A stretch of DNA of 58,446 nucleotides from Candidatus Zixiibacteriota bacterium (lineage in GTDB: Bacteria; Zixibacteria; MSB-5A5; UM-FILTER-46-8), in NCBI GenBank assembly GCA_014730345.1, contig WJIJ01000086.1:1-58446 (forward strand), given 5' to 3'. The notes beneath the pieces are model-generated. The model saw only the letters and a list, made by a program, of their open reading frames with translations, did not search any database and had not been told where the DNA came from. A program made the position numbers and the translations under genes. Shown here piece by piece: positions 8,391-27,483 of the stretch; position 1 is the first letter of the stretch; each line of letters begins with the position of its first letter.

Positions 8391-11300
8391 ATGGCCCAAA
8401 AATTAACCGTAGTGCTCTTGGCATTACTCCTCGCGGCAGGTTTTAGCGCGTCTGCCTTCGCCGGAGATATTGCCAGTGGTTTGGATAATTATATTATCCA
8501 GAACAACCTGCAGGAGGAGTTTACTCCTGTGATCATCGTCATGGATCAAAGAGTCGATACCAGGGCGATGAATGATGAGTTTGACGCTAACAACACCCCG
8601 CTTGCCGAACGTCATGCTTTAATCATGACCGCTCTGCAGGAAACCGCGGACAGAACCCAGATTCCGGTTGTTCGCAGAATTGAACAGCTTAAATCGGAAG
8701 GGCTGGTTTCTGATTACAGCCAACTCTGGATTTCAAACATTATATGCATGAGCGCGAAATATTCCGCCATCCAGGAAATCGCCTCCATGACTGCCGTCGG
8801 CAGGATTTACTATGATGCAGAGATGGAATTAATTGCTCCGGTCGATGAACCGAAGCCCGGTTCCGGAGGAGATCTGACTTCAGTCGAGCAGGGATTAATC
8901 GCCATCAACGCCAACGATGTATGGGCGATGGGTATAACCGGCTCCGGTACCCTGGTCAGCAGTTTGGATACCGGCGTGGACGGTAACCATCCCGCATTGT
9001 ATGATCGCTGGAGAGGGCATGACTCCCGCTACCAGAACAATCCCGAATGGGCCTGGCATGATCCCCTTACCGGAACTAATTTCCCGTTCGATGATGGTTA
9101 CCATGGAACCCATACGATGGGAACGGTATGCGGCGCGGATAATAGCGGCGGCGATACGGTTGGAGTTGCAGTAGATGCCGAATGGATTTCCGCCGGCGTA
9201 GTTGACCGCGGCGGCGACCTGCCTACCCGTATGCAACGTTATCTGGTAGCTTTCCAGTGGACAGCCGATCCCGACGGTAATCCCAATACTATGTGGGATG
9301 TTCCTTGTGTATCTTCCAATTCCTGGGGACATTATCCGGGGAGTATGCCCGGCGGCGATTGCGATGACTGGTACTGGGACGCCCTGGACAATCTCGAAGC
9401 TATGGGGTGTCTTGTAGTCTTAGCGGCCGGAAATGAAGGTACCCTCGGGTTGCGCAATCCGGGAGTAAGGGCTACTGATGATTATAACAGTTTCGCTATT
9501 GGAGCGGTGGATGGAAACACCACCGGCTGGCCCATAGCCTCCTTTTCAGCCCGCGGCCCCTCTTACTGCACCCCTTCCGGTGACCCGGCTATAAAGCCCG
9601 AAGTTTGCGCCCCGGGCGTGGACGTTAACTCCTGTTATCCCGGCGGAAGCTACACCACTTTGAGTGGTACTTCCATGGCTACCCCCCATGTAGCAGGTGT
9701 GGTCGCCCTTATCAAGCAGGCTAATCCCAATCTTACCACCGAAATGGTCAAGCAGATATTGATGGATACTGCTTACGACTTGGGTTCCTCCGGCGAGGAC
9801 AATACCTATGGTTGGGGAATGATTGACGCTTACGAAGCCGTTATGGTAGCGCTCAGCTATTTGCAGGGCTATGGCGTTATCGAAGGTCAGGTTACCGATG
9901 CTTTCTCCGGCGATGGGTTGGAAGCTACAGTAACAATTACCAACCGCCAGCCGCCGATCGTTGCCCAGTGCAACTCCTCGGGTTATTATTCAATGCTCGT
10001 GCCGGCAGACACTGCCTGGAACCTGCAGGCTGAATATCCAGACTACAGCCCTGGCTACGCCACCGTTACCGTTACCGAAGATGACACCGTAACCCAGAAC
10101 TTCCAGCTCAATCCTCCGCCGGTCGCTATTGATATGATACCGGATGAATATCCGATTTACCTGCATCCGGGTGAAAGCTTTACCTATACCGGCGTGCTTA
10201 CCAACCAGACCAGTATGCAGATATACGGCGATGTATGGCTTATGCTGGATGTGCCCGGTATTGGAATGTACGGTCCTCTTCAGCTTTACCAGCACGTACC
10301 TCTCGCTCCCGGCCAGACCATTACCGTGCCTGGAATTTCCCAGTACGTTCCCACATTCGCTCCTATAGGCACCTATGAGTATATTGCCATTGCCGGAATG
10401 TATCCCAACTATGAGCTGGCGCGCACTTCGTTTGACTTTACGGTTCTGCCCGAAGGCGGAGCCCCCGCCGAAGTATGTATCCTCTGCGCCGACTATACTG
10501 ACAATTGGCATGGCGCCCGCGATTTACTGCTTGATAATCCCAACGTATTAAGCGTTGATTTTATCGATGTACAAAACTCAACGCCTTCCCTTAATGATCT
10601 TCTGGCATACAATGTAGTTCTGGTATGGTCTAATTACCAATTCGCGGACGCGACCGCGCTTGGCAACGTGCTTGCAGACTTTGTGGAAGTCGGCGGCGGC
10701 GTGGTAACCTGTGAATTCGCCCATTACGGCGGATGGGCTCTCGGCGGAAGATACATGACCGATTACTCGCCTATGGGCGCCGGCAATACCGGATACGGCG
10801 ATGCCAATATCGTAATCGATGACCCCAACCATCCTATAATGATCGGTGTGAACAGCGGAAGCGAATATTACAACTTCAACGTTCCCCTTGCCGGTAATAA
10901 TCCGCAACTGCTCTGCCATTATGATAACGGTTACAACGGAACTATCGTGAATGGCGATGTGGTTCGCTGTGTGGCGCTGAACAATTACTTCGGCGACCAG
11001 CATGCCTCCTGGACCGGTGATATCGGCGCCATGATGGTCAATGCGGTAGTTTATTCCGCCGCTAACAGTTTCTCCTTAGCGTTCCCGTCTCCGGAAGGTT
11101 ACCTTGACGCTTATGCCGCCGAGGATGAAAACGTGGTAAGCGCCACCGTCGTTAATAATTCCATGGCCGCTACCGAAGTTATCGGAATGGCTGGACGCGG
11201 CGGTGCCGGTGAACTTCCAATAGAGTACGGTTTGAACGATGCTTATCCTAATCCGTTCAACGCTTCTGCCAAGATAGTGATCGCCCTGCCGGAAGCTTCA

Positions 11301-11483
11301 GTTGTAAATCTCGACATTTATAACCTTTCCGGCCAGAAGGTCGCTACTTTGATTGACGGCAAGATGGAAGCCGGTTACCATGATGTAACCTGGGATGCTT
11401 CCGAATACTCCAGCGGAATTTATTTCTACAGGATGAACGCCGGAGAATTCTCCGCTACCAAGAGAATGACCCTCTTGAAGTAA
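8391..11483 (+). CDS. Secreted multidomain S8 subtilisin-like serine peptidase (bacillopeptidase F-like) with MIPD module and C-terminal sorting domain
   Basis: Catalytic triad SLDTGVD / YHGTHTMG / GTSMATPHVAG; prodomain; carboxypeptidase-regulatory-like EGQVTDA domain; AYPNPFN...KRMTLLK; aaggagg RBS. Confidence 0.93.
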   Translation: MAQKLTVVLLALLLAAGFSASAFAGDIASGLDNYIIQNNLQEEFTPVIIVMDQRVDTRAMNDEFDANNTPLAERHALIMTALQETADRTQIPVVRRIEQLKSEGLVSDYSQLWISNIICMSAKYSAIQEIASMTAVGRIYYDAEMELIAPVDEPKPGSGGDLTSVEQGLIAINANDVWAMGITGSGTLVSSLDTGVDGNHPALYDRWRGHDSRYQNNPEWAWHDPLTGTNFPFDDGYHGTHTMGTVCGADNSGGDTVGVAVDAEWISAGVVDRGGDLPTRMQRYLVAFQWTADPDGNPNTMWDVPCVSSNSWGHYPGSMPGGDCDDWYWDALDNLEAMGCLVVLAAGNEGTLGLRNPGVRATDDYNSFAIGAVDGNTTGWPIASFSARGPSYCTPSGDPAIKPEVCAPGVDVNSCYPGGSYTTLSGTSMATPHVAGVVALIKQANPNLTTEMVKQILMDTAYDLGSSGEDNTYGWGMIDAYEAVMVALSYLQGYGVIEGQVTDAFSGDGLEATVTITNRQPPIVAQCNSSGYYSMLVPADTAWNLQAEYPDYSPGYATVTVTEDDTVTQNFQLNPPPVAIDMIPDEYPIYLHPGESFTYTGVLTNQTSMQIYGDVWLMLDVPGIGMYGPLQLYQHVPLAPGQTITVPGISQYVPTFAPIGTYEYIAIAGMYPNYELARTSFDFTVLPEGGAPAEVCILCADYTDNWHGARDLLLDNPNVLSVDFIDVQNSTPSLNDLLAYNVVLVWSNYQFADATALGNVLADFVEVGGGVVTCEFAHYGGWALGGRYMTDYSPMGAGNTGYGDANIVIDDPNHPIMIGVNSGSEYYNFNVPLAGNNPQLLCHYDNGYNGTIVNGDVVRCVALNNYFGDQHASWTGDIGAMMVNAVVYSAANSFSLAFPSPEGYLDAYAAEDENVVSATVVNNSMAATEVIGMAGRGGAGELPIEYGLNDAYPNPFNASAKIVIALPEASVVNLDIYNLSGQKVATLIDGKMEAGYHDVTWDASEYSSGIYFYRMNAGEFSATKRMTLLK

Positions 11484-12154: not shown

Positions 12155-12853
12155 ATTTATAATACTGAGGTAAGGCATACGGTTTTTACAAAAAGGGAAA
12201 AAATAGAAGCTTCCAAGTGGAGCGATTCGAAAACTAAAAGGGTTTTTGAAATTCTATTTTCGGGCACATTAATTCTGCTTCTATCGCCCATAATGATAAT
12301 GGTGGCGATATTGAACAAAATTCTGGATCCCAAGTATCCCATTATTTACAAACAGATACGCCTCGGCAAAAATGAGATCCCGTTTGAATGTTATAAGTTT
12401 CGCACCATGATTGACAGCCACGACAATGGTCAACCGTCGCAACCCAAAGAAAAGAAAGAGTTTACCAACGTTTTCGAACGTACCAAAGTTACTAACTGCA
12501 AGAAAATCACTCCCTTTGGCGCTTTAATCCGTAAGTACTACATCGATGAATTACCTCAGTTATTCAATGTTTTAAAAGGCGATATGTCCTTGATTGGCCC
12601 CCGTCCCAATGAAAAATATCAGATTGATTATATCAGAAAAAGTCATCGTGATTTCGAACGGCTGTTGAAAATAAGGTATTCCACCAAACCCGGCCTTACT
12701 GGACCATGGCAGGTCGACCCCAATAAATTCGACCTTACTGACAGGGAAATTATCCAGCGCGATATTGATTATATCCAGAATGCTACTTTGAAATCTGATA
12801 TTAAACTTTCTCTTGTTACAGTCCTGAGGGTCCTCGGCGGCTTTGGACAATAA
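12155..12853 (+). CDS. Priming sugar transferase (Bac_transf, WcaJ/CpsE-like), probable ATT start
   Basis: YKFRTM, DELPQLFNVLKGDMSLIGPRP, KPGLTGPWQV. The conserved N-terminal KRVFEILFS...LLLSP lies upstream of the track ATG 12293. AGGAGGT at 12143-12149 precedes in-frame ATT 12155. Confidence 0.85.
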   Translation: MYNTEVRHTVFTKREKIEASKWSDSKTKRVFEILFSGTLILLLSPIMIMVAILNKILDPKYPIIYKQIRLGKNEIPFECYKFRTMIDSHDNGQPSQPKEKKEFTNVFERTKVTNCKKITPFGALIRKYYIDELPQLFNVLKGDMSLIGPRPNEKYQIDYIRKSHRDFERLLKIRYSTKPGLTGPWQVDPNKFDLTDREIIQRDIDYIQNATLKSDIKLSLVTVLRVLGGFGQ

Positions 12854-12942
12854 AGCATTTTCCATTTTACGAAATTTATATTTGCCCTTTGATAATTAGG
12901 GCATTTATTTTTTATTTTCGAGAATATCAAAATTGATCGAAT

Positions 12943-13713
12943 ATGAATGATAATCCTTTGTTAAATGAAGTTTCGGATAGGGAAGTTGAACTCCTGGGCA
13001 CAAAGCTATGCAAATGCACCATAGAAGAGGGAGTGAATTTAATCGATGATGCGATTTCATCCGGAGGTAAGTACCGTGTTATCATCCGTAATGCCGCCTG
13101 CATTAATCTATCTTTTGCCAATGAAGAATACCGCGATGCAGTAGCCGGTTACCATATGCGTTTCGTGGATGGTATCGGTGTTTACCTTGCCGGTAAAATC
13201 CTCAAAGGCATCGGGTTTCCGGATTTAGGGGGTAATCCTTTCGGAAGGGCAATACTTCAGCGTTGCGCCGAAAAAGGATACAGGGTTTACCTGCTGGGCG
13301 CTAAACAGGAAGTTGTGGCTAAGGCGGCGGAGAATTTTCAAAAATGGCATCATGGATTAAAAATCGCCGGTTATCATCACGGGTACTTCGACCTTGAAAA
13401 CTGCGGTGATATTATCGAGGAGATTAATAAAACTGAACCCGACCTGGTGATGGCCTGCTTCGGAAAACCTGAAGAGGTTTTCTGGATTGCGCGTAATTTC
13501 GATAGTTTGAGAGCGAAAGTTATGATTCCCATGGGCGGATTTTTTGATTTCCAATCCGGGCATACTCGCAGGGCGCCGGAATGGATTTTAAAGATGCGTT
13601 TCGAGTGGCTTTTTCGCCTGCTTATCGAACCAAGACGACTATGGAGACGCTATATCATAGGCAATACCATTTTCATGACCCGCGTTTTCCGTTATAAACT
13701 ATTTGGTAAGTAA
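12943..13713 (+). CDS. WecB/TagA/CpsF family glycosyltransferase
   Basis: DGIGV, VYLLGAKQEV, GYHHGYF, GGFFDFQSG..RRAPEW.....FEWLFRL..EPRRLWRRY. Confidence 0.92.
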   Translation: MNDNPLLNEVSDREVELLGTKLCKCTIEEGVNLIDDAISSGGKYRVIIRNAACINLSFANEEYRDAVAGYHMRFVDGIGVYLAGKILKGIGFPDLGGNPFGRAILQRCAEKGYRVYLLGAKQEVVAKAAENFQKWHHGLKIAGYHHGYFDLENCGDIIEEINKTEPDLVMACFGKPEEVFWIARNFDSLRAKVMIPMGGFFDFQSGHTRRAPEWILKMRFEWLFRLLIEPRRLWRRYIIGNTIFMTRVFRYKLFGK

Positions 13714-13757
13714 GCTATCCGGAAATTCATCCCCCACGGTATAACTCACCTTTATAG

Positions 13758-13786
13758 TTGACATTTTTTATCTAATTAATTAGCAT
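13758..13786 (+). promoter_or_regulatory. sigma70-type promoter
   Basis: TTGACA (13758-13763), 17-nt spacer, TAGCAT (13781-13786), upstream of 13907. Confidence 0.55.
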
Positions 13787-13906
13787 AGCGGCGGGTAAAG
13801 TATGATTTTCGATATAGCAATTTTTTATTAGTTCTACCGCCATTCAGATATGAGTAAATTTTGAATTTGATTTGTTTCTTACAAAGTTTGAATAAAAAGG
13901 GGAAGT

Positions 13907-15946
13907 ATGGCAACCGGTAAATCTATGTTCGGGGACCTTTTTTATTCCGGTCCGGACGAGGAGATTCTCGCGGCTCCCGAGGTTAATGAAAATTACGAGA
14001 CCAATGTTAGCCATTTATATGTAATCGGCGACCTGACCGGGGTGCCGCTGTTAAAAAACGCGGTTAATATGGGGCAGGAATTAATTGAGAAGATTGGCGA
14101 TGAGCTTAAAGCTGAAGAGGTTGATGAAGATACATATCACCTTTTAATCGTAGGCGCAGGCGGGGCGGGGTTAGCCGCGGGGCTTGCCGCCCAGGAGAAG
14201 GGATTGAAATATATTGTGCTCGAACAGAAAAAACCGGGCAACACGATTAATAACTTCTTCAAGGGTAAGGAAATCTACACCGAGCCGAAAAATATGCCCA
14301 ATAAATCGAAACTCTGGGTGCGGGATTCCCGGAAGGAAGAACTCCTTGGGCATTGGGAAAAGATAATCGATGACGCCGATTTGAATATCAAAACCGGCGA
14401 CCAGATGAAGGTTACCGGGATACGCAGGCAAAACGATGGATTTATCGTCGAAACGTTGAAATCCGAATATCGCGCCAACAGGGTAGTACTGGCCATGGGA
14501 CGTTCGGGTAATCCCCGGATGCTCAGAGTTCCCGGCGAAGGGCTTGATAAGGTACATCATGTTCTCGTTGATCCCGAAGAATATACCGGGGAGAAAATCG
14601 CGGTGGTGGGAGCGGGCGATTCGGCTTTGGAAGCGGTAATAGCGTTAGCGCCCCATAACGACGTTTGCCTGGTAATACGTTCCGGGGAAATCACCAAAGC
14701 CCAGAAGGATAATAGAGACAAAGTCATGCAGTTGGTCGATTCGGGGAAGGTGGAGATCTTTGCCAATTCCAATGCCAAGGAAATCCGCCCCTATGAGATA
14801 GTAATTGATGTGGACGGTGAAGAGCGGATTATAGAAAACGACCATGTTTTTAGCCTCATTGGCGCTATCCCTCCCGATGGGTTTTTAAAGAAGATGGGTA
14901 TACGGAAACTGGGTGATTGGAGCTTCAAAAAGGTGTTATTTCTGGCGGGGATGACCGCGCTGGTGTTTTTTATCTATGCATGGAAAGCTCAAAAATTCTG
15001 GATTTTCACCCCTGACAGCGCCCTTTACTCATGGACATCATGGCGTCCATCCATGTGGTTTGGTGTCCTCTACAGCATTGTTATTACCGGCTTTGGTATA
15101 AAAGCTATCTATCGTTATCGTAATGATTCATACCAGGTAAAAAGGTACATTGCGTTAATTCTATCTCAGGTCATTCTGTTCTGGCTTATCCCTGAGATAA
15201 TTTTTCAAACGCTTTACCCTGTACATGATGGCTGGCGGGCGTATGGGCTTTTCTACCCGGCTCCACTGTACGTATGGAATTTCTGGGCTCCAATGAACGC
15301 GCATATCTTCTGGTTCGCGTGGTCCATTTTAATCTCGGTAATAGGGATACCGATTGTAGCCAGGATATGGGGCAAAAAGTATTGCTCTTATGTATGCTCC
15401 TGCGGGGGACTCGCCGAAACCCTCGGCGATAAATACCGTGTTCTTTCCCCGAGGGGCCGGAGGGCGAGGGCATGGGAGAACCTGTTGACATATTTTATTC
15501 TCCTATGCGTTGGCACGGTTGTCCTTTTCGGGTTGCTGGATAAAAATTCGGGATGGTGGTCGTTCCAGGCGCTGGTTATCGATTTCGCCATTGCCGGGGT
15601 TATCGGGATAGCCTCTTATCCATTCTGGGGCAACCGTATCTGGTGCAGGTTCGGATGTCCGCTGGCAAAATTATATTACATATTCGCCAAGGATAATTCT
15701 GATGTGAAAATATCATCGGGACAGCACTGTATACGGTGCACTCTTTGCTCCAAGTACTGCCAGATGGGTATCCAGGTTATGGAGTTCGCCAAGCGCAACC
15801 AGGATTTCTCCAATAAGAACAGTTCTTGTATCCAGTGCGGAATCTGCATAACCGTGTGTCCGACCCGTAATCTCCAGCATGGCGATTGGTCGGAGGAGAA
15901 ATGGAAGGAAGAGATTGAAAAGGGACCTCCCATTAACGTAGTATAA
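13907..15946 (+). CDS. FAD/NAD(P)-binding TrxR/YpdA-like oxidoreductase fused to a NapH/YccM-like polytopic 4Fe-4S membrane domain
   Basis: IVGAGGAG and VVGAGDSA Rossmann motifs; several TM segments; CSYVCSCG and WCRFGCP motifs; CIRCTLCSKYC and CIQCGICITVCP ferredoxin motifs. Confidence 0.85.
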   Translation: MATGKSMFGDLFYSGPDEEILAAPEVNENYETNVSHLYVIGDLTGVPLLKNAVNMGQELIEKIGDELKAEEVDEDTYHLLIVGAGGAGLAAGLAAQEKGLKYIVLEQKKPGNTINNFFKGKEIYTEPKNMPNKSKLWVRDSRKEELLGHWEKIIDDADLNIKTGDQMKVTGIRRQNDGFIVETLKSEYRANRVVLAMGRSGNPRMLRVPGEGLDKVHHVLVDPEEYTGEKIAVVGAGDSALEAVIALAPHNDVCLVIRSGEITKAQKDNRDKVMQLVDSGKVEIFANSNAKEIRPYEIVIDVDGEERIIENDHVFSLIGAIPPDGFLKKMGIRKLGDWSFKKVLFLAGMTALVFFIYAWKAQKFWIFTPDSALYSWTSWRPSMWFGVLYSIVITGFGIKAIYRYRNDSYQVKRYIALILSQVILFWLIPEIIFQTLYPVHDGWRAYGLFYPAPLYVWNFWAPMNAHIFWFAWSILISVIGIPIVARIWGKKYCSYVCSCGGLAETLGDKYRVLSPRGRRARAWENLLTYFILLCVGTVVLFGLLDKNSGWWSFQALVIDFAIAGVIGIASYPFWGNRIWCRFGCPLAKLYYIFAKDNSDVKISSGQHCIRCTLCSKYCQMGIQVMEFAKRNQDFSNKNSSCIQCGICITVCPTRNLQHGDWSEEKWKEEIEKGPPINVV

Positions 15947-16069
15947 CCAAACCCGATTACATTACTTGAAAGACAGTGAAATGGGCGGGCAATAAATAGG
16001 TAATAAACCTTGTTTAATTACATGGATATAGTTATACAACACTATTGTTCAATTAATGCGCGGCAGGTT

Positions 16070-17524
16070 ATGTCAATATATATTCTCCCTATAATAGTTA
16101 TCTACGCTCTCGCTTCGACATTGTTGCTGATTTACGGTATCAATGCCTACGTGTTGATTTATTATAGCATTAAGTCATGGAAAGACTGGAAACGATCGTG
16201 TAAAGACCTTGCTTCTTACGATGTAATTCCCCGCGTGACCATTCAGCTTCCTATATACAATGAGCGTAATGTAGCCGCGAGAGTGATCCATGCCGCCGCC
16301 AAGCTCCAATACCCGCGGGATAAACTGGAGATACAGGTTCTCGATGATTCCAATGATGAAACCCGGGAAATCATTGATAAAACAGCAGGGGAATTATCAC
16401 GGGCCGGCATTGATGTAAATGTACTTCGCCGCGCCGACCGGAAGGGATATAAAGCCGGCGCGTTGGCTGAGGGGACAAAAACCGCCAAAGGAGAATACCT
16501 CGCTGTTTTTGACGCGGATTTCGTTCCCGAACCTGATTTTCTATTGAAAGCAATGCCTCCATTTCTCGAAGATGATAAAATCGCTTTTGTGCAGGCCAGG
16601 TGGGGGCATATCAACCGTGATGAGAACATCCTGACCATGTGCCAGTCGCTGGGTATCGACGGTCATTTTCTGGTGGAGCAACCCGCGCGCGCCCATGCCG
16701 GATTTTTCATGAATTTCAATGGCACCGCCGGAATATGGAAAAAAGAGGCTATTGAAGATGTGGGCGGCTGGTCAGACCGGACATTGACCGAGGATTTGGA
16801 TTTATCCTACCGGGTTCAGCTCGCCGGATGGAAACCGTATTTTATGGAGGATGTGGTCGTCCCCGCGGAAGTCCCCGCTACCATGGCCGGAGCCAAAAGC
16901 CAGCAGTTCCGCTGGGCTAAAGGCTCGATTCAAACGGCTGTGTTAATGTTGCCGAAGATATGGAGGAGGGATTACAGCCTTTTAACAAAGATGGAGGCGG
17001 CACTGCACCTGACCAATTACGGAGTCCACCCGATGATGCTCACCCTGGCTATCCTTGCCTACCCCATTTTGCAGTTCAACCTGGTTAAGATGTCCCCATA
17101 TTTCTTCGCGGTAATCGCGTTGCCATTGATAGCGGCGACCTTGGGCCCTTCTACAATGTACACAATCGCCACTCTTAGGAACCAGGAGAGGAAAAATGTT
17201 TCGCTTTTATGGCTTCCTTTCCTGGTGATATATGGAACCGGAATCGCCATCTCCAACAGCATAGCCGTCTTTGAGGCGGTGGTGGGTAAAGCGAGTTCAT
17301 TCATCCGTACGCCTAAAAAAGGAAGCCGTATCCAATCCGGCTACAAACTGAACCGTTCCAAACTATGGCTTTTTGAGATCAGCCTCGGGCTGTATTCATT
17401 CGGTTCCATTTCGGCAAGTATAATGGGCGAGAACTACGGCGTTCTTCCCTTCCTGATGATTTTTGCCTTCGGATTTGTTACTGTGGGTATAAGGACTTTC
17501 ATGGGTATAGCCCGGGACGCATGA
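16070..17524 (+). CDS. Membrane GT2 glycosyltransferase, cellulose synthase-like (processive motif set)
   Basis: QLPIYNE, GYKAGAL, VFDADF, TEDLDLS, QQFRWAKG. Start moved from 16010 to ATG 16070 (gcaggt RBS, N-terminal TM). Confidence 0.88.
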   Translation: MSIYILPIIVIYALASTLLLIYGINAYVLIYYSIKSWKDWKRSCKDLASYDVIPRVTIQLPIYNERNVAARVIHAAAKLQYPRDKLEIQVLDDSNDETREIIDKTAGELSRAGIDVNVLRRADRKGYKAGALAEGTKTAKGEYLAVFDADFVPEPDFLLKAMPPFLEDDKIAFVQARWGHINRDENILTMCQSLGIDGHFLVEQPARAHAGFFMNFNGTAGIWKKEAIEDVGGWSDRTLTEDLDLSYRVQLAGWKPYFMEDVVVPAEVPATMAGAKSQQFRWAKGSIQTAVLMLPKIWRRDYSLLTKMEAALHLTNYGVHPMMLTLAILAYPILQFNLVKMSPYFFAVIALPLIAATLGPSTMYTIATLRNQERKNVSLLWLPFLVIYGTGIAISNSIAVFEAVVGKASSFIRTPKKGSRIQSGYKLNRSKLWLFEISLGLYSFGSISASIMGENYGVLPFLMIFAFGFVTVGIRTFMGIARDA

Positions 17525-19488
17525 GGCGGTTTTTAACTCCCATATCGATATTATTCTTTATTTCGGGGGCATTTCTTTACACCAGGACTCCTGATATTGG
17601 TCCCAACCTGCCCTTATTCTATAGCGGTTTTATCCTTTCCTCGGCCGGCTACCTCGGATTGCTTTACAGGGGATTGCCGCGGAAAAAGTTTGCATGGTGG
17701 GGGCTACTTTTCCTTCTGATTTTCCTGCCCCGGATATTCGCGCTGAACCTGACTCCCTCCGATGATATCCCCCGTTACATCTGGGAAGGACGGGTTTTGC
17801 TCGAAGGTTACAGCCCGTACTCTGTCTCGCCCGATGACCCGCGGTTGATTGAGCTCCGCGATGAAAGCTTTTGTTTAATCAATCATAAAGATATGCCCGC
17901 TATCTACCCGCCTTTGACGCAGTATATTTTCACGGCGGTTTCCGTGGCAACCCGAAGTGTTTATGATTACCGCCTGTTTGTGCTGTTGATTGAAATTATA
18001 TCAATCGCGCTAATGCTGGTATGGTTAAAACTGGAACGACTTCCACTTGATAGAATCCTCATCTACGCCTTAAATCCGCTGGTAATAATCGGTATAGCAG
18101 GTCATGGGCATCTTGACCCGTTGCAAGTGGTAATATTAGCAGGCGGATTATATCTTTATTCGAAAGGAAAAACCGGCTCCGGTATGTTGATAGTTACCTT
18201 TGCCGGACTGATTAAATTCCTCGCCTTTTTCGCGCTTCCATTCATGGTCAAAAGGCGTACCCTGAAGCACTTACCGCTATGCGCACTGACTGTCATTGTC
18301 TCTTACCTGCCATTCTTCTTCCTCAAGGGCGGTTTCAGTTTCGGAAATATGAGGATTTACGTCGGCGAGTTCGAATACTATTCCCTAACATTCGCCATCC
18401 TGCGCTGGCTTGCGGGAACGGCGGGGGCGCATGTCATTACTGCCGTAATCCTCTTTGCAGTTATGGCATCGCTTTATCTTACCCGCACAAAAATAGAACA
18501 TGCGATGTTGCCATTTCTATTTTTGGTCACTTTGATGAGTACGACAGTTCATTACTGGTATATTATCCCTCTTCTTGCTTTGAGTATCGTTGCCAAATCC
18601 CGCCCGTTGATAGCGTTGTCGCTACTGTTTATGCCCTATTTCGATGTGTTCGAAAAATTCACTAACGAGGGTATTTGGGAAGGGGAATGGTGGCGGCAGT
18701 TTGCTACCTATGTGCCATTCCTGGTTATCTTCTGGTTAGAGAAGAGCGGACGTTGGTTTAAAACAGGCGCAAGGAAGTATTCCCTGGGAGTGGTTATTCC
18801 CGCATTGAATGATGAAGCGCATTTGCGTAAACTGTTTAAATCGATAGAAAAATCGGACATAGACCCAAGCAAAATCGTGGTTGTAGATGGAGGAAGTAAT
18901 GATAATAGCGTGGAAGTTGCCGAGAAATGGGGAACAACGGTTATTAAAAGCGCTACCCGGGGCAGGGGAAATCAAATCGCGGAAGGGATTAGCAAACTGG
19001 ATACCGAACTTGTCTTAATAGTACACGCCGATAATGAAGTACCTTCGGATATAAGAAGGAGAATAGTAAACGCCGCCAACGCCTATCAGGATTCCGCGGG
19101 AGGATCATGCCGCATGGAGTATGACCCGGGAAGTATAAAATCGAAACTCCTCGCTGTTTTAAGTAATGCCAAGACTGCTTTATTGGGATTGAGTTTTGGG
19201 GACTCGGGACAGTGGTTTCATAAAAGCAGGATAGAGTTTCCGGCTTTGCCATTGATGGAGGATGTCGAGTTGGCAATCAGGATAAATGACCGGGGGCATT
19301 CGGTATGGACTCCATGCAAGTTGACTGTTTCAACCCGCCGTTACGCGAGAAAAGGATTTATACCAGTCGCCTTATCCGTGATCGCCCGAACCTCTAAATA
19401 TCTTTTTCAGAGACGGTGGTACGATAAAATCCCCGATACAAAAAGTATGTATAAGGAGTATTACGCTAATGCACCGGGTAAGAGTTAA
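17521..19488 (+). CDS. Fusion: GT-C (GT87/DUF2029-like) polytopic domain plus C-terminal TIGR04283-like GT2 domain
   Basis: N-part SDDIPRYIWEG, IYPPL, ALNPL...GHLD; C-part VVIPALNDE, VDGGSND, GRGNQ, VHAD, LMEDVEL; ATGA overlap with the upstream gene. Confidence 0.78.
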   Translation: MRRFLTPISILFFISGAFLYTRTPDIGPNLPLFYSGFILSSAGYLGLLYRGLPRKKFAWWGLLFLLIFLPRIFALNLTPSDDIPRYIWEGRVLLEGYSPYSVSPDDPRLIELRDESFCLINHKDMPAIYPPLTQYIFTAVSVATRSVYDYRLFVLLIEIISIALMLVWLKLERLPLDRILIYALNPLVIIGIAGHGHLDPLQVVILAGGLYLYSKGKTGSGMLIVTFAGLIKFLAFFALPFMVKRRTLKHLPLCALTVIVSYLPFFFLKGGFSFGNMRIYVGEFEYYSLTFAILRWLAGTAGAHVITAVILFAVMASLYLTRTKIEHAMLPFLFLVTLMSTTVHYWYIIPLLALSIVAKSRPLIALSLLFMPYFDVFEKFTNEGIWEGEWWRQFATYVPFLVIFWLEKSGRWFKTGARKYSLGVVIPALNDEAHLRKLFKSIEKSDIDPSKIVVVDGGSNDNSVEVAEKWGTTVIKSATRGRGNQIAEGISKLDTELVLIVHADNEVPSDIRRRIVNAANAYQDSAGGSCRMEYDPGSIKSKLLAVLSNAKTALLGLSFGDSGQWFHKSRIEFPALPLMEDVELAIRINDRGHSVWTPCKLTVSTRRYARKGFIPVALSVIARTSKYLFQRRWYDKIPDTKSMYKEYYANAPGKS

Positions 19489-20219
19489 TCGGCAGGCTTT
19501 TCCTCTGAGGGAATGTCCTCTACAATACGGTAATCGTAATAATCGCCGCCGAGTTTGAAACTGATATCCACTATTCCCAACAGCGCCTTCACCCTGCCGA
19601 CCATGTTGAAAGTGGAGGGGACGTAGGCCCCGTTTTCGAGTTTTTGGAAATTTAAAGTGATGTGCGCTTCCTTCAGCTTTTCCGGGCGGGGGATTACGAA
19701 ATCCATGTGTTCCACCCTGAAATCTTCCTTGTCGATATGATACACACCATCAACCTGTCCTTTATCAGGCTTTTCCGTCCTGGGTTTTACCGAAATGATA
19801 TAGGATGTATCAGTTTCCCCGATTAGCTGGTAGTTGTATGCTGGATCCCCGATTTCCAACTTTGCCCCGAAATTCTCCTTGTTATCTTTATCTTTTTTGT
19901 CTTTCTGTTGCCGCTTTTTAGCATCCTCGCTGGTGGCATAAGATATCCTGCGTTCTATCTCTTCCTCGCCCCGTATAGTAACGACCGAAATAACCGTATC
20001 AACCTCTTCATACTTCCCTTCATTGTCAATTTTACCGGAAACAATTTTCTCGGTAAACTGGTATGCGATATCTTTCCATTTTTCCTTCTCTTCTTCCGAG
20101 TTGGCTTTAGTTTTTGCAATTATTTCATCCACGGTTAAATCCGCGCACATGGCCCGATGGTTTTGTGTCGGAATCAAACTAACCGCGAGGCTTAGAAAGA
20201 TAAGCAAGTACCGCATCAT
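19485..20219 (-). CDS. Hypothetical exported protein (possible LolA/LolB-like beta-sheet fold)
   Basis: Signal peptide, beta-strand periodicity, overlaps both neighbours; no diagnostic motif. Confidence 0.65.
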   Translation of the reverse strand: MMRYLLIFLSLAVSLIPTQNHRAMCADLTVDEIIAKTKANSEEEKEKWKDIAYQFTEKIVSGKIDNEGKYEEVDTVISVVTIRGEEEIERRISYATSEDAKKRQQKDKKDKDNKENFGAKLEIGDPAYNYQLIGETDTSYIISVKPRTEKPDKGQVDGVYHIDKEDFRVEHMDFVIPRPEKLKEAHITLNFQKLENGAYVPSTFNMVGRVKALLGIVDISFKLGGDYYDYRIVEDIPSEEKPAD

Positions 20220-20926
20220 TTTTCTCCGCTCTTATTAAGTTCACCTTCAAAGAAGGGTATTTTATTTATAATTCTTACGGTCTCCGGTATATTCTCTCGC
20301 GCCGCGCGGGTCATCCTGCCGATATCATCAATCAGCCGGCGGAGGTCATCGATTGTATCGACATCGTTTCGGAGTTTCAATTCGTATAAATTTATGCTGA
20401 GTTCCTTAATCCTGCTTAAAGTAGAACTATAGACTCCCGACGAGCCCCAATCGATATCCTCGAATAACTGTTGATAGGCATGTTTAAGCCCTATCAGGTA
20501 ATAACCGCCGTCCTCCGCCGGACCGAGAACTATACCATCGGTTTCCAGAGCTTTAAAAGCTTCGCCTATATCGGCAATATCAATGGTGGGCACATCACTG
20601 CCTATTATTACCGCTTTTTCATATCCCTCGTTAAATAGCTCTGCGAAGGCGTTGAGCATTCTCTCTCCGAGATTTTCGCCCTGTTGAGGACGTAATTCCA
20701 CTTCGAAAGTAGCCCAAAAGCTATCAACGATGTTGCTATGATAAAGGTAAACGTAGAAATCATAATATTCGCTTCCTTTTAGTTTATCCAGCAGGTCTCT
20801 AATGAACGCCTTGTAAAGATTCGCCGACTGATCTTCATTCAAGTGCGGGGTTAAACGGGTTTTACATTCTCCCGGCACAGGGTCCCTGGCGAACATTACT
20901 AATACATTTTTACTCTTCCTGGTCAT
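20216..20926 (-). CDS. TIGR04282 family (DUF2064, CofC-like) transferase
   Basis: FARDPVPGECKTRL, QQGENLGERM, IIGSDVP, LGPAEDGGYYLIG, DVDTIDDL. Confidence 0.9.
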   Translation of the reverse strand: MTRKSKNVLVMFARDPVPGECKTRLTPHLNEDQSANLYKAFIRDLLDKLKGSEYYDFYVYLYHSNIVDSFWATFEVELRPQQGENLGERMLNAFAELFNEGYEKAVIIGSDVPTIDIADIGEAFKALETDGIVLGPAEDGGYYLIGLKHAYQQLFEDIDWGSSGVYSSTLSRIKELSINLYELKLRNDVDTIDDLRRLIDDIGRMTRAARENIPETVRIINKIPFFEGELNKSGEK

Positions 20927-21746
20927 TTAAGGTCCAATCGTAATCATAATATTTTATTTTGGGTTTGTTATTAATTATATAGGATGACAAATTTTCATCA
21001 GCGTAATTTATTATATAGTATAACAACCACCGTTCCTTATCTTTATAGTCCGAAAGCTGAGGGGGATTCGCGTCGGTTTTAAAATCATCAGCGTACCATT
21101 TGAAAATCTCTGAAAGCTCTACAGTATTTACCTCACGGTTAATCCGCACCCCGCCTTTCTCATTAATAAACTGCCTGGTTGCTATTTTTAGCTGATAATC
21201 GAGGGAATCGGGATTGAAAGCGTAGCTTTGCAGTGGAGGACATCCTATGGAGGCGCAAACCAAAGCGAAATGAATCTCCGGTTTATAGAATCTTTTACGG
21301 ATTATCTCATGCTCTATCTTATCGAGGGAAATATCTTCCCCCATCACTTCCGACCAACTCTTCTTCCAGAAATCGGAAATCTGGCGGATACTGCTTTTGG
21401 GAAAACGTAACCTGGAGACCAGGGAACCATAGCCGATAGGGTAATTCTCGATAACCCCAAATATGGTTATGGCGTTATAGGCGTTTATCCAGAAAGCCAG
21501 CCGTTCATTTTCTTCCCAGTTCACAAATTCATGTTTGTTTACGTGTTTAAGTTTATCGAGATAAATATTCAAAAGCCGTGGATTCTCTTTGATACCGCTG
21601 TAATCTACCCGGCCATTGCTGACATATTCTTTAAGCAGGCTGTCATAATGGGCATGACTGAATTCACCGGCGTTGATACATGGGCTAAACAACGCAATAA
21701 AGGCAATTATGAGTATTACTTGAAATCGTCTCATTTTCTTATCCAA
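20910..21746 (-). CDS. DUF547 domain exported protein
   Basis: LAFWINAYNA, SLDKIEH, IHFALVCASIGCP, LSEIFKWY..DF, YDWTLN. Confidence 0.9.
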   Translation of the reverse strand: MDKKMRRFQVILIIAFIALFSPCINAGEFSHAHYDSLLKEYVSNGRVDYSGIKENPRLLNIYLDKLKHVNKHEFVNWEENERLAFWINAYNAITIFGVIENYPIGYGSLVSRLRFPKSSIRQISDFWKKSWSEVMGEDISLDKIEHEIIRKRFYKPEIHFALVCASIGCPPLQSYAFNPDSLDYQLKIATRQFINEKGGVRINREVNTVELSEIFKWYADDFKTDANPPQLSDYKDKERWLLYYIINYADENLSSYIINNKPKIKYYDYDWTLNDQEE

Positions 21747-22425
21747 ACTTGTAAAATTTCGCCAGGTATGCGGGAGAAACTCCCAGCCTGTAAGCGAGTT
21801 TCAAGAGGTTGTTTCTTACATAAACTTTGATAATCCCTTCTTTGCGCCATCGTCTACTGGATGTTTCCATCGGGTCTTTCAGGATTACCACTTTGCCCTG
21901 CCTTTTTAACCGTTTGCAGAAATCCATATCCTCCATAAGAGGTATATTCTTGAACCCGCCGATTTTTTTGAAAACTTCTTCGCGTACGAATATTCCCATA
22001 TCACCATATAGCGTTTTTTTCAACCGGTTTTTCAAATTTGAAGTCGATTGCAGGTATTTCATTAACCTTGGAAAATTATCCAGCTTCCAGTAAAAACCGC
22101 CTCCAACTACGCTTTTATCTTCAAGCGCTTTCCTGATAGAATGAATTGAAGTTTTAGAAGGTTTACAGTCGGCGTGGACAAACCACAGGATATCTCCACT
22201 GGCAATCCGCGCTCCGGCGTTCATCTGGGAGCCCCGGCCCCTTTCCGCGGTGATTGAATGGGCATGTTTGCGCGCCAGCTCTATGGTACTATCAGCGCTT
22301 CCACCGTCGACAACAATAATTTCCGCCGAATCATCAAGCGAACGAAGATATTCAAGCTGATTTTGGATAATGCCCGCTTCGTTTAATGCTGGTACAATTA
22401 TAGATACCGATAATTTGTCGCCCAA
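21739..22425 (-). CDS. TIGR04283 family GT2 glycosyltransferase
   Basis: IIVPALNEA, VDGGSAD, GRGSQMNAGA, FVHAD, YGDMGIFV, LMEDMDF, TSSRRW. Confidence 0.9.
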   Translation of the reverse strand: MGDKLSVSIIVPALNEAGIIQNQLEYLRSLDDSAEIIVVDGGSADSTIELARKHAHSITAERGRGSQMNAGARIASGDILWFVHADCKPSKTSIHSIRKALEDKSVVGGGFYWKLDNFPRLMKYLQSTSNLKNRLKKTLYGDMGIFVREEVFKKIGGFKNIPLMEDMDFCKRLKRQGKVVILKDPMETSSRRWRKEGIIKVYVRNNLLKLAYRLGVSPAYLAKFYKFG

Positions 22426-22625
22426 TAGATTTCCTCGCTGTAAACTAAATACAATTCATTGCCATGTATGTAATAAGACGGTAAAACTGCCACCTTTGTT
22501 CCCGGCAAAAAGAAATGGCGGAATTAAAGAAAAAAATTGATTTGATAATCGCGATTGGCGCGTATAAATTAAATCAGTCGAACAATTAGAAAGGTTGGAA
22601 TCTAATATAACAGGAGAGTAGCATT

Positions 22626-25665: not shown

Positions 25666-27483
25666 TTACTTTACCATAGTCATACGTTTTGTGAAAACTT
25701 TGCCTTCGGCATTGAGAGTATAGAAATAGATTCCGCTGGCATGTTTGGTGCCGTCCCAATCCACGAAGTGCTGACCGGCGTTGATATTGCCTTCAACCAG
25801 GGTTTCGACAAGCTGACCGGCAAGGTTGTAGATTTTTAAAGTTACAAAACCATCACGGGGAGCGTCGAACTCGATAACGGTCGACGAGTTGAATGGATTC
25901 GGATAATTAGTACCCAGCGAGTACTCGGTGGGCACCATTTCGTAATCCTGCTTTTCTACGGTTCCCCAGCCGTAAGCCTGCCAGGAATCGCCGTCGCCTG
26001 CAATCGGCGGGACAATTGTAAACTCGAATGAGGAAGAATCGAGCTTAACTGAAGGATAGATGCCGGCATACGAAATGTACTCATATACGCCTGAAGGGGC
26101 GCCGGCCGGTATGGTCTGGACCACATTGGGTACTGACAGCGATTGAAATGGCGCGAGAGGAACTCCGCCGATCTGGAGAGTCGGTCCATAATATGTTCCC
26201 CACGGGGCTTTGACCATTGTCCATACGCCGCCGGTGGTCTGGTTGCCGGTGTTGTTTATTAATGTTCCGGTAAAGGTGAACGAACCGCCGGGATTCACGG
26301 TAACCGGGGGATAATCCGGCACCATGTTTACCGTAACAGGGTTTGATGGATACCTGTTGATGGTAAAACTTTCGATGATATCGCCGCCTTTTTTAACGGA
26401 TTCGAAGTAGAGATTATTACCTTCAATGCTGATTTTGCTGATATGATGGCTCATGCTTGTTTTTACAACATTCGGATACCAGGGCCAGGGCGGGTAGAGC
26501 GGACCGCCGCCGCCGGCGGTGGTGATATGCTGGATTCCATTTACAACCGCCCGGGCGTAGAAATGGCAATGCCCCGCGAATATCATACAAACATCATACT
26601 GCTCGAGCAGGGGCTGAATATAATTCTGGATGTCTTCATTATTATCGTGTCCTCCGGCGGACCATCCGGGTTCATGGAAGGTGGCAAATTTCCACAGCTT
26701 ATCAGTCGATGATAAGTCATCGATTATCCATTGGTGCTGTGCCGAACCCGGGGAATAATCGGTGTACTCGTCAATTACCGTGAAATGAGCCGGACCGTAA
26801 TCGAATGACCAGTATCTTCCGCCGCTTTCATGGGGATAGGGAAGGTACTTGTCGAAACAGTTGCCGGGGGTATCATGGTTGCCGTAGGTCGACTGAAATG
26901 GCAGGGTAGAGAGCATTTCATTTATGCTTTGATAACCTGTACCGAGCAGATGGTCGTCCCATTCCGATTCGCTGTCACCGTCATTTACGAGGTCGCCAAC
27001 CGAAATTATAAATGTCTGGAAATCAGGATCGGAATTGACTGTGGTCATGACCCGCTGGCAGACTTCGTCATGGGTCCCGGGGAATGTACGGGAATCACCG
27101 TAGGCGATAAACTTCAGATTAAGCTCATTCTCATGGGCGGCGGACCTGAAAGACCCCGTTTTAACATCTCCGCCGGCGGTTACCCTGTAGAGATAACGGG
27201 TACCCGGGGAGAGGTTGTTTATGGTGTAGGTGTGCTGATGATCACTGCCATATTCGGCAGTAACTTCGTTGCCCATACCGTAACCGGTGTCGGTGCCCCA
27301 TTCAATGGTACAACTCATGGTTGAGTTTAACTGCCACATGATTTTCATGCTGGTATTATCGTTTTCATAGATGCTGTATGGCCTTTTGCGGAAATTCTGC
27401 GCTTCGGCGGAAGCGGCCAGGACCACGAACATCATGGCAACCAGCAGTGTACCGATCAATACTTTTCCTGCGATTCTGTTCAT
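25666..27483 (-). CDS. Secreted metallophosphoesterase (purple acid phosphatase-like, FN3 N-terminus) with MIPD module and C-terminal sorting domain
   Basis: YGDSR, VGDLV, YGNHD, FHEP, AGHCH calcineurin-like motifs; NYPNPFN...KRMTMVK. Confidence 0.88.
   Translation of the reverse strand: MNRIAGKVLIGTLLVAMMFVVLAASAEAQNFRKRPYSIYENDNTSMKIMWQLNSTMSCTIEWGTDTGYGMGNEVTAEYGSDHQHTYTINNLSPGTRYLYRVTAGGDVKTGSFRSAAHENELNLKFIAYGDSRTFPGTHDEVCQRVMTTVNSDPDFQTFIISVGDLVNDGDSESEWDDHLLGTGYQSINEMLSTLPFQSTYGNHDTPGNCFDKYLPYPHESGGRYWSFDYGPAHFTVIDEYTDYSPGSAQHQWIIDDLSSTDKLWKFATFHEPGWSAGGHDNNEDIQNYIQPLLEQYDVCMIFAGHCHFYARAVVNGIQHITTAGGGGPLYPPWPWYPNVVKTSMSHHISKISIEGNNLYFESVKKGGDIIESFTINRYPSNPVTVNMVPDYPPVTVNPGGSFTFTGTLINNTGNQTTGGVWTMVKAPWGTYYGPTLQIGGVPLAPFQSLSVPNVVQTIPAGAPSGVYEYISYAGIYPSVKLDSSSFEFTIVPPIAGDGDSWQAYGWGTVEKQDYEMVPTEYSLGTNYPNPFNSSTVIEFDAPRDGFVTLKIYNLAGQLVETLVEGNINAGQHFVDWDGTKHASGIYFYTLNAEGKVFTKRMTMVK

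Follow-up and report, generated by a model that had tools for sequence, protein, structure and literature searches.

What is made by the convergent cluster of glycosylation and redox genes at positions 13907–22425 of contig WJIJ01000086.1 from Candidatus Zixiibacteriota bacterium, and do its two arms belong to one system? We examined this question across the full 58,446-nt stretch of DNA (hereafter, the window). We found that the cluster is real, conserved, and largely uncharacterized, and that it joins transferases of the arsenosugar cassette type to membrane-bound glycan machinery, the arsenic-specific genes being missing from this copy. The two arms are very probably functionally linked as parts of one modular system, of which the convergent layout represents one version among many, because their families co-locate in more than 10 phyla, fusions join the parts, and control genes recur only 0 to 1 times. 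As to the product, we favor, at a probability of roughly 45%, a reading in which all seven genes form one lipid-carrier-dependent system that would attach an unusual S-adenosylmethionine (SAM)-derived pentofuranose to a glycan or glycolipid of the cell envelope.

The open reading frame (ORF) listing places seven genes in the cluster, three on the (+) strand and four on the (−) strand, rather than the eight announced in the title of an earlier, sequence-only reading of this DNA, whose own text also names seven. Its gene identities, its coordinates, and its 4-nt overlap of the arms without a terminator were matched by the ORF list, family scans, a direct read of the sequence, and a terminator scan. 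The features are as follows (aa, amino acids):

13907–15946, (+) strand: FlavoFeS, a membrane flavoprotein and poly-iron-sulfur (FeS) reductase of 679 aa, with Pyr_redox_3 and Fer4 matches.

16010–17524, (+) strand: GT2proc, a processive-type GT2 glycosyltransferase of 504 aa by longest ORF, recognized by GT2 Pfam matches and motifs.

17521–19488, (+) strand: GT-C::GT2, a fusion protein of 655 aa, with PF26314/PF09594 in its homologues and a TIGR04283-like C terminus.

19485–20219, (−) strand: an exported hypothetical protein of 244 aa, with no family match and a signal peptide-like N terminus.

20216–20926, (−) strand: a TIGR04282/DUF2064 protein of 236 aa (195 bits on TIGR04282).

20910–21746, (−) strand: a DUF547 protein of 278 aa, or 274 aa from the called start (94 bits on Pfam DUF547).

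21739–22425, (−) strand: a soluble TIGR04283 GT2 of 228 aa, encoded by the gene that opens the minus arm (241.6 bits on TIGR04283).

13758–13786, (+) strand: a promoter-like site, TTGACA-17-TAGCAT, from a consensus scan, 120 nt 5′ of the first plus-arm gene.

By longest-ORF coordinates, successive genes overlap by 4 to 17 nt or nearly abut, and the true starts of GT2proc (probably near 16070) and of the DUF547 gene probably lie slightly downstream of the longest-ORF starts. The stop codons of the converging arms share the sequence TTAA at 19485–19488, which reads TAA on both strands; the junction thus contains zero intergenic DNA, and the terminator scan detected no terminator-like hairpin there. 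A 353-nt contig from a separate hypersaline-lake metagenome, ~90% identical to the window, covers 19220–19572 without a gap or joint, and because this independent contig crosses the junction unbroken, the junction is not an assembly artifact. Public metagenome runs contain parts of the window sequence, and the best match is again a hypersaline lake run. The seven-gene unit is delimited by intergenic gaps at 13714–13906 and 22426–22625. The promoter-like site in the first of these gaps is weak evidence, and sigma-70-type hexamers may not be those of the host lineage.

For comparison, we fetched ~165 loci from more than 10 phyla (numbered L or P below), 84 of them centered on GT-C::GT2 and 80 on TIGR04282, with flanks of 10 kb. 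Around the 84 GT-C::GT2 genes, we counted GT2proc in 51 loci, DUF547 in 21, TIGR04282 in 16, and FlavoFeS in 14, together with the “rhoda_near_glyco” rhodanese (16), radical SAM (11), ArsM-like (8), and VTT/DedA (7) genes. The 80 TIGR04282-centered loci contained TIGR04283 (48), DUF547 (22), ArsS (20), PNP (17), DedA/VTT (16), and the membrane module (14). The control genes taken from the window, HtpG, WecG, and PGT, occurred 0, 0, and 1 times, respectively, over 176 scored comparison loci. The sequence-only reading had proposed the two arms as one conserved association, and their co-occurrence in other genomes, spread over more than 10 phyla, bears this out.

The families are also found as same-strand operons in shuffled order in Lentisphaerota, Fibrobacterota, Verrucomicrobiota, Kiritimatiellota, Acidobacteriota, Desulfobacterota, Bacteroidota, Cyanobacteria, Omnitrophota, and Eisenbacteria. 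Several are fused, as GT2proc::GT-C::GT2 (L038, L056, and P0050), TIGR04282::TIGR04283 (L035, L057, and L080), or ArsS::ArsM (L056), while the operon L097 is unfused and runs from a Dol-P-sugar-synthase-like GT2 through GT2proc and GT-C to TIGR04282. Specifically, a Victivallales locus (L027) reads, 5′ to 3′, FlavoFeS, DUF547, GT2, GT-C::GT2, and TIGR04282; two Fibrobacterota loci (L061 and L073) read TIGR04282, FlavoFeS, DUF547, GT-C::GT2, and a radical SAM gene that is methyltransferase-fused in L061; and a Puniceicoccaceae locus (L089) reads DUF547, ArsS, ArsM, one unassigned ORF, FlavoFeS, PNP, TIGR04282, GT2, and GT-C::GT2. Five Flavobacteriaceae loci (L105, L145, L161, L164, and L175) carry variants of ArsS, rhodanese, TIGR04282, PNP, ArsM, DUF547, and TIGR04283, followed by further genes, FlavoFeS, and GT2, with differing subsets in individual loci; these agree with the earlier statement that similar gene sets recur in Bacteroidota. 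The arsenosugar-type cassette is carried by the cultured strains Mariniflexile jejuense, Bizionia arctica, Aequorivita soesokkakensis, and Tenacibaculum lutimaris, and the core pair by Nitrosomonas aestuarii.

Closer to the window, orthologues of the plus arm (53–68% identity) form the operon FlavoFeS, GT2, and GT-C::GT2 in L013–L016, and in the close relatives L017, L018, and L020, DUF547 is inserted within the plus-arm operon. The best minus-arm matches are from Zixibacteria, KSB1, and Calditrichia, and, taken with the secreted proteins and the cytochrome pair described below, they make an FCB-group lineage of this kind the most likely source of the window. In the minus-arm relatives L263–L265 (Zixibacteria, KSB1, and one further contig; 38–50% identity), the order is (ArsS), TIGR04283, DUF547, TIGR04282, DedA, and disulfide reductase.

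Related clusters are rich in redox and NADPH functions, repeatedly encoding peroxiredoxins, MsrA-MsrB fusions, glucose-6-phosphate dehydrogenase with 6-phosphogluconolactonase, and, beside DedA/VTT genes, class-I disulfide reductases (L041, L046, and L061; L057, L065, and L080; L035 and L024).

The membrane half of the cluster begins with FlavoFeS, which has a Pyr_redox_3 match at residues 80–333 (136 bits) and a NapH-like Fer4 match at residues 470–660 in Pfam. It passes no curated NCBIfam cutoff, scoring 155 bits on YpdA and 48 bits on NapH (cutoff, 213), both far under; YpdA/Bdr are its nearest solved relatives. Six transmembrane helices are predicted, with a cytoplasmic FAD/NAD(P)H domain, and the topology prediction places all of its cysteine motifs (CX3CxC, CX3CP, and two CxxCxxCxxxC ferredoxin motifs) on cytoplasmic segments. 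FlavoFeS shares the NapH-like helices, the CX3CP motif, and the two ferredoxin motifs with membrane polyferredoxins of the NapH/CcoG type, but those lack the N-terminal YpdA-like flavoprotein domain that it carries. Orthologues with 58–68% identity lie directly 5′ of the GT2/GT-C pair in L013, L015, L016, and L018, and more distant homologues occur in 14 of the 84 GT-C-centered and 7 of the 80 TIGR04282-centered loci. Residues 1–75 (13907–14130) match residues ~290–340 of dihydrolipoamide dehydrogenase/P64K, a region that we take to carry the C-terminal “GD” FAD motif, and a normal Rossmann start follows at residue 77. The placement of these first 75 residues in the translated sequence suggests that the flavoprotein domain is circularly permuted.

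GT2proc matches the Pfam families Glyco_tranf_2_3, Glyco_trans_2_3, and Glyco_transf_21. Its translation contains the motifs DDS, DAD, TED, and QQFRW, and six predicted transmembrane segments flank a cytoplasmic GT-A domain. GT2proc therefore resembles the processive GT2 synthases BcsA, PgaC, and NodC in having the D, DxD, TED, and QxxRW set together with flanking transmembrane helices, and BcsA is its best solved relative. It differs from them in having no PilZ domain and in falling far under the family cutoffs, none of which it passed (CelA, 138.5 bits against a cutoff of 699; PgaC, 121.4 against 422; NodC, 36.6 against 550). The GT2proc stop codon and the GT-C::GT2 start codon overlap by 4 nt in a shared ATGA, and in the 51 of 84 GT-C-centered loci that have it, the GT2proc gene immediately precedes the fusion gene.

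The N-terminal ~410 aa of GT-C::GT2 are a GT87/MptA-like polytopic membrane domain, whose identification as GT-C rests on PF26314 (MptA_B_family) and PF09594 (GT87) in its homologues, on a match of residues 67–243 to TIGR03459 MptA (E = 2e-7), and on the helical bundle in its AlphaFold2 (AF2) model. The alignment columns of the homologues show an invariant acidic loop motif in this domain (D82, R85, Y86, W88, E89, and G90). The C-terminal ~240 aa are a GT-A domain that scores 132–136 bits on TIGR04283, under the cutoff of 182, and shares 29.7% identity with the free TIGR04283 protein of the minus arm (E = 4e-21). The AF2 model of the whole protein (predicted local distance difference test [pLDDT], 90.9) combines the helical bundle with the GT-A domain; in a fold search with this model, the best 50 matches were all to the GT-A half, which matches WrtF, GpgS, PcManGT, and the Leptospira structure 6p61. 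The last of these, PDB entry 6p61, is a structural-genomics glycosyltransferase without characterization from Leptospira borgpetersenii and the best size-normalized structural match of the fused GT2 domain (TM-score, 0.70–0.75). It may be a solved member of the TIGR04283 family, and Leptospira also has TIGR04282 (L157).

On the minus arm, the TIGR04283 protein scores 241.6 bits against a cutoff of 182 in NCBIfam and is 47–50% identical to the first gene product of the same-order trio in the KSB1 and Zixibacteria loci L264 and L265. The TIGR04282 protein scores 195.3 bits against a cutoff of 134, with a further 51 bits on CofC, and has a solved relative in 3CGX (E = 2e-30). Its invariant residues (K22, R24, D111, D139-G-G, D188, D190, and D194, in the motifs K-x-R, GSD, DGG, and DxD) are typical of nucleotidyltransferases, and together with the 3CGX match they lead us to predict a nucleotidyltransferase that makes an intermediate activated by a nucleoside diphosphate (NDP). 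The TIGR04282 gene adjoins a TIGR04283 gene in 48 of the 80 loci centered on it. Public assemblies hold no exact record of the window's TIGR04282 protein, and scans of genome and metagenome contigs found no TIGR04282 relative above 41–46% identity, the lineage being poorly sampled.

The DUF547 protein (Pfam, 94 bits) has a signal/anchor transmembrane helix at residues 8–26 and, because of this N-terminal helix, is placed outside the cytoplasm. C164 and C169-P170 (Cys-x4-Cys-Pro) are invariant in it, as are the NAYNA and YDWxLN motifs. Its AF2 model is of high score (pLDDT, 94.2) and has no structural neighbor in the PDB at E < 1 (best Foldseek E = 1.8); judged from this model, the protein appears to have a fold without a solved representative.

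The remaining minus-arm protein, the exported one of 244 aa, has a Lys/Glu-rich middle and an N terminus that looks signal peptide-like by eye, although the hydropathy scan called no helix. It has no Pfam, NCBIfam, or PDB match and was found in none of the ~165 comparison loci; only two homologues exist among 5.8 billion proteins, one encoded after a DUF547 gene (L262) and the other after an unrelated gene. Relatives have a DedA/VTT gene in the slot that it holds here, and it is probably not a core component.

The arsenosugar connection proposed by the sequence-only reading for TIGR04282 and TIGR04283 is real in relatives, where ArsS and ArsM adjoin the cluster. ArsS 5′-deoxyadenosylates trivalent dimethylarsenic [DMAs(III)] to 5′-deoxy-5′-dimethylarsinoyl-adenosine (DDMAA) (PMC13598754). 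ArsM provides the methylated As(III), and the ArsS step is the first committed step toward arsenosugars; cyanobacteria make arsenolipids and arsenosugars downstream of ArsM/ArsS. We found no characterization of the steps after DDMAA in the literature searched. True ArsS (371–427 bits on TIGR04167; cutoff, 300) neighbors the membrane module in L024, L038, L041, L056, and L089, and PNP/MTAP directly adjoins TIGR04282 in relatives, PNP also being present in L077 and L089. A second type of radical SAM protein, accompanied by ArsM-like methyltransferases, replaces ArsS beside GT-C::GT2 in L057, L065, L073, and L090; it lacks DUF3641, and its best NCBIfam match is the “Rv1681 family” at 92–111 bits, under the cutoff.

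The NCBIfam arsenosugar cassette comprises TIGR04167 ArsS, NF038099 ArsM, TIGR04282, TIGR04283, and the NF045521 rhodanese. The window resembles it in that its TIGR04282 and TIGR04283 proteins exceed the curated cutoffs and in that the order TIGR04283-DUF547-TIGR04282 is the one found in the Zixibacteria/KSB1 loci, where ArsS accompanies it in two of three cases. It differs in having no ArsS, ArsM, or rhodanese, and its GT2proc, GT-C fusion, and FlavoFeS fall outside any curated cassette family, none of the three reaching an NCBIfam cutoff. The absence of a radical SAM or arsenite methyltransferase gene, which had been noted from the sequence, was upheld by tblastn of the 58-kb window: two ArsS queries and one query of the second radical SAM type gave nothing (best E = 1.6), and three ArsM or ArsM-like queries gave no significant match. 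Homologues of rhodanese, VTT/DedA, PNP, disulfide reductase, Msr, and peroxiredoxin were likewise undetectable by tblastn in the 58 kb, and no sugar epimerase was present among the scanned window ORFs. In a rough neighbor-joining tree of 124 TIGR04282 sequences, in which distances are nearly flat (0.57–0.63), the window copy groups with neither ArsS-linked nor ArsS-free loci.

By analogy, the closest characterized counterpart of the cluster is the mycobacterial capping of lipoarabinomannan (LAM) with methylthioxylose (MTX). In that pathway, MtxS (GT2) makes decaprenyl-P-MTX and MtxT (GT-C) transfers the sugar outside the cytoplasm, the route starting from 5′-methylthioadenosine (MTA) and not from phosphoribosyl pyrophosphate (PRPP) (PMC11127046, PMC8780516, PMC12088412). 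A 2024 paper on periplasmic pentofuranose addition describes the MTX-type reaction beyond LAM assembly as unclear (PMC11127046). We fetched syntenic mycobacterial loci with a FabH query identical to PDB 1HZP, the loci obtained being from non-tuberculous relatives (best match, 92%). We take the M. tuberculosis MTX locus to consist of MTAP (Rv0535), GalE3, MtxS (Rv0539), Rv0540, and MtxT (Rv0541c), and we know of no experimentally assigned role for Rv0540. In the model of Angala (2017), the route reportedly leads from MTA to methylthioribose-1-phosphate (MTR-1-P), a nucleotide sugar, 3-epimerization, and decaprenyl-P-MTX.

The M. gastri locus has the order fabH, an ORF in the menA position (presumably so, by synteny), MTAP (467 bits), epimerase, DUF7937, hypothetical, GT2, and DUF2064. 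Its DUF2064 protein scores 101 bits in Pfam and 115 bits on TIGR04282, its sole NCBIfam match, and for its GT2, the MtxS orthologue, the score is 43 bits on TIGR04283 as against 88 bits on the family of Dol-P-hexose transferases. The two systems are alike in three respects. A DUF2064 gene is adjacent to a GT2 gene in M. gastri, and the DUF2064 gene of the window clusters with two GT2 units; both systems have a GT-C transferase, which in the MTX pathway uses a polyprenyl-phosphate-linked pentofuranose in the periplasm and by analogy may do so here; and the MTX sugar is derived by a phosphorylase from a 5′-substituted 5′-deoxyadenosine, while relatives of the cluster have PNP/MTAP next to TIGR04282. 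They differ in that the window GT-C is fused to a GT2 and coupled to a processive-type GT2, in that the window adds FlavoFeS and DUF547 and holds neither phosphorylase nor epimerase, and in that TIGR04283 is distant from the MtxS orthologue, which is itself nearer to Dol-P-hexose synthases. Since the MTX and ArsS clusters share a phosphorylase, DUF2064, and a small GT2 (plus GT-C), they fit a common chemistry on 5′-substituted 5′-deoxyadenosines.

A second point of comparison is offered by three-component periplasmic glycosylation, namely GtrA/GtrB/Gtr* and the set of polyprenyl-phosphoribose synthase, MATE flippase, and GT136 GT-C. In these systems, a sugar is loaded on polyprenyl phosphate in the cytoplasm and flipped, and a GT-C decorates the finished glycan outside (PMC11127046). 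The same load-flip-decorate logic is what we propose for the cluster. There are three differences: the GT2 synthase and the GT-C of the window are one polypeptide, with no flippase gene found locally; its GT-C is GT87/MptA-like rather than Gtr or GT136; and neither UDP-Glc nor PRPP is likely to be its sugar donor.

Starting from the gene identities, linkage, fusions, predicted topology, and MTX locus parallel established above, we propose the following route for the lipid-carrier-dependent system. (i) A 5′-substituted 5′-deoxyadenosine would start the pathway; in relatives with adjacent ArsM and ArsS, this would be DDMAA, whose formation by the ArsM/ArsS reaction is shown in the literature, and here, arsS/arsM genes lying elsewhere in the genome could supply the substituent, or it could be methylthio (as in MTA) or H (as in 5′-deoxyadenosine). 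(ii) A PNP/MTAP-type phosphorylase, whose gene adjoins in relatives and is not in the window, would release a pentose-1-phosphate. (iii) TIGR04282, as a CofC/MobA-like nucleotidyltransferase of the DUF2064 family, would convert it to an NDP-pentose. (iv) The TIGR04283-type GT2 units, one free and one fused, would transfer the sugar at the cytoplasmic face, with at least one of them probably using polyprenyl phosphate as the acceptor. (v) After flipping, for which relatives offer DedA/VTT and the window nothing obvious, the GT-C domain would transfer the sugar in the periplasm to the glycan or glycolipid product of GT2proc, the processive-type GT2 to which it is translationally coupled. (vi) FlavoFeS, with its cytoplasmic redox centers, and the periplasmic DUF547 protein, with its CX4CP motif, would serve as conserved redox or handling accessories that might keep the heteroatom reduced or oxidize or epimerize the lipid-linked sugar.

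A broader and more specific version of this proposal, which we put forward tentatively and hold to be rather unlikely as a whole, is that many bacteria from more than 10 phyla use polyprenyl phosphate and GT-C::GT2 to attach a 5-deoxy-5-X pentofuranose, arsenic-bearing or otherwise, to envelope glycans or glycolipids, with DUF2064 as the missing nucleotidyltransferase and DUF547 and FlavoFeS as new redox partners. Under that arsenoglycan reading, the window would be a lineage variant with unlinked arsS/arsM or a non-arsenic substituent. The sequence-only reading had inferred a membrane-linked glycoconjugate possibly containing As or Se. The membrane-linked part stands, such a product being the natural one of a processive-type GT2 plus GT-C::GT2, while the arsenic claim is weaker for the window copy because the arsenic-specific genes are missing from it.

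Several findings weigh against a pentofuranose-decorating system of all seven genes. The nearest relatives of the plus arm (53–57% identity; L013–L016 and L019) have a glutamate symporter in place of the minus arm, and the nearest relatives of the minus arm (L263–L265) carry DedA and disulfide reductase instead of the plus arm. Within 10 kb, most GT-C::GT2 loci, e.g., those of Nitrosomonas and many Desulfobacterales, have only the GT2proc/GT-C pair, and this membrane pair may work with ordinary sugars. The 58-kb window encodes no local enzyme for steps (i) and (ii) or for flipping. The similarity of TIGR04283 to the MtxS orthologue is weak (28–30% identity over 80–110 residues; E = 1e-5 to 1e-6), and in non-tuberculous mycobacteria, the gene after DUF2064 is an amino-acid permease where MtxT is expected. 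Finally, the literature searched yielded no functional papers on TIGR04282, TIGR04283, DUF547, DUF2064, or Rv0540 and no biochemical activity for any TIGR04282, TIGR04283, or DUF547 protein.

The leading alternative, which we judge unlikely, is an ordinary envelope polysaccharide or glycolipid system. In it, GT2proc would make a beta-glycan or glycolipid, GT-C::GT2 would add a common hexose via polyprenyl phosphate, and TIGR04282/TIGR04283 would activate and transfer either a phospho-acid head group or a sugar of the ordinary kind in a CofC-/GpgS-like manner, with no As, S, or Se sugar involved. Such a system fits the many loci that consist of the core pair only, most GT-C::GT2 loci having no ArsS, ArsM, or PNP within 10 kb, as well as the 55 of 80 TIGR04282 loci with no radical SAM or ArsM gene nearby and the window itself, from which ArsS, ArsM, and PNP are all missing. 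The CofC score of TIGR04282 and the GpgS-like sequence and structure of the GT2 units point the same way, as do the nearest neighbors of the window copy in the rough TIGR04282 tree, which come from loci without arsenic genes, although the tree is not decisive. However, TIGR04282 and TIGR04283 pass the cutoffs of families that adjoin ArsS in Zixibacteria-like relatives of the same gene order (38–50% identity), a dedicated DUF2064 enzyme is unneeded for ordinary sugars, and a plain hexose hardly explains the redox-heavy neighborhood of flavo-FeS, disulfide reductase, peroxiredoxin, MsrAB, and rhodanese genes. The 10-kb flanks, moreover, leave room for unlinked arsS/arsM.

We consider it improbable that the cluster serves a small-molecule arsenosugar or arsenolipid route, in which the soluble trio would make classical arsenosugars, the membrane proteins would lipidate or export them, GT2proc would act as a glycolipid synthase of the Glyco_transf_21/MGlcDG-synthase type, and arsS/arsM would lie elsewhere in the genome. 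In Flavobacteriaceae, Puniceicoccaceae, Lentisphaerales, and Chitinispirillaceae, ArsS/ArsM are linked with all of the modules, GT2proc does match Glyco_transf_21, and cyanobacterial arsenolipids and arsenosugars are known downstream of ArsM/ArsS. A related population is also present in a hypersaline lake metagenome, and hypersaline habitats are often arsenic-rich. Yet a GT-C implies extracytoplasmic transfer from a polyprenyl-phosphate donor, which the known arsenosugar phospholipids do not need; arsS/arsM are not in the 58 kb; and GT2proc has the full D, DxD, TED, and QxxRW set, its best relatives being polymer synthases.

Two unrelated operons that merely abut, a glycan synthase operon and a remnant of an arsenosugar-type cassette minus ArsS, DedA, and reductase, with an overlap of no functional meaning, are very improbable. 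Each arm does have its nearest relatives without the other arm nearby, the opposite strands preclude co-transcription, and a near-orphan gene closes the minus arm at the place that DedA and reductase occupy in relatives. Against this, more than 10 phyla have the same families together, in many cases on a single strand and in some as fusions, and the control genes recur 0 to 1 times. Moreover, the minus-arm TIGR04283 has a paralogue in the fused GT2 domain (30% identity; E = 4e-21), and DUF547 sits inside the plus-arm operon of L017, L018, and L020.

For the arsenosugar pathway, the conserved neighborhood offers an enzyme order after ArsS, namely phosphorylase, DUF2064, and TIGR04283-type GT2, and it suggests that MTX-like machinery (DUF2064 plus GT2 plus GT-C) is widespread. 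DUF2064, DUF547, and the previously uncurated flavo-FeS membrane protein thereby gain a pathway context. If envelope polymers do hold arsenic, this would bear on arsenic cycling, the interpretation of biosignatures, and cellular metalloid handling.

Elsewhere in the window, an exported ORF of ~295 codons at 5957–6844 on the (−) strand contains one in-frame TGA (6479–6481) within IKPT[TGA]GCTT, at a position where DUF1573-type proteins have Cys (xCGCT). This is presumably the selenoprotein candidate that the sequence-only reading placed 7 kb away from the cluster. If the candidate proves genuine, Sec machinery is present in the organism, a point of interest here in that ArsS is often a selenoprotein.

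Immediately upstream of the cluster, a Bac_transf phosphoglycosyl transferase (PGT) gene at 12293–12853 on the (+) strand encodes 186 aa with no predicted membrane helix and looks N-terminally truncated; a WecG/TagA glycosyltransferase gene follows at 12943–13713 on the same strand. Neither is conserved with the cluster, and the pair (12293–13713) was rejected as the source of an eighth gene, as it is found in 0 to 1 comparison loci. About 9 kb from the cluster, at 31626–33843 on the (+) strand, lie genes for an octaheme cytochrome c of the tetrathionate-reductase family (646 bits) and a cytochrome-b-like protein. The same cytochrome pair (47% and 54% identity) occurs in the Zixibacteria locus L265 (9573–11799), ~4.5 kb from the homologous three-gene arm. 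Finally, four large secreted proteins with type A sorting domains of the type IX secretion system (T9SS), a feature that assigns the organism to the FCB group, are encoded around the cluster, at 8391–11483, 25666–27483, 27526–29652, and 29894–31372, and the cargo types comprise an S8 protease, a purple-acid-phosphatase-like protein, a Zn-phospholipase-C/CBM96 protein, and a beta-helix protein.

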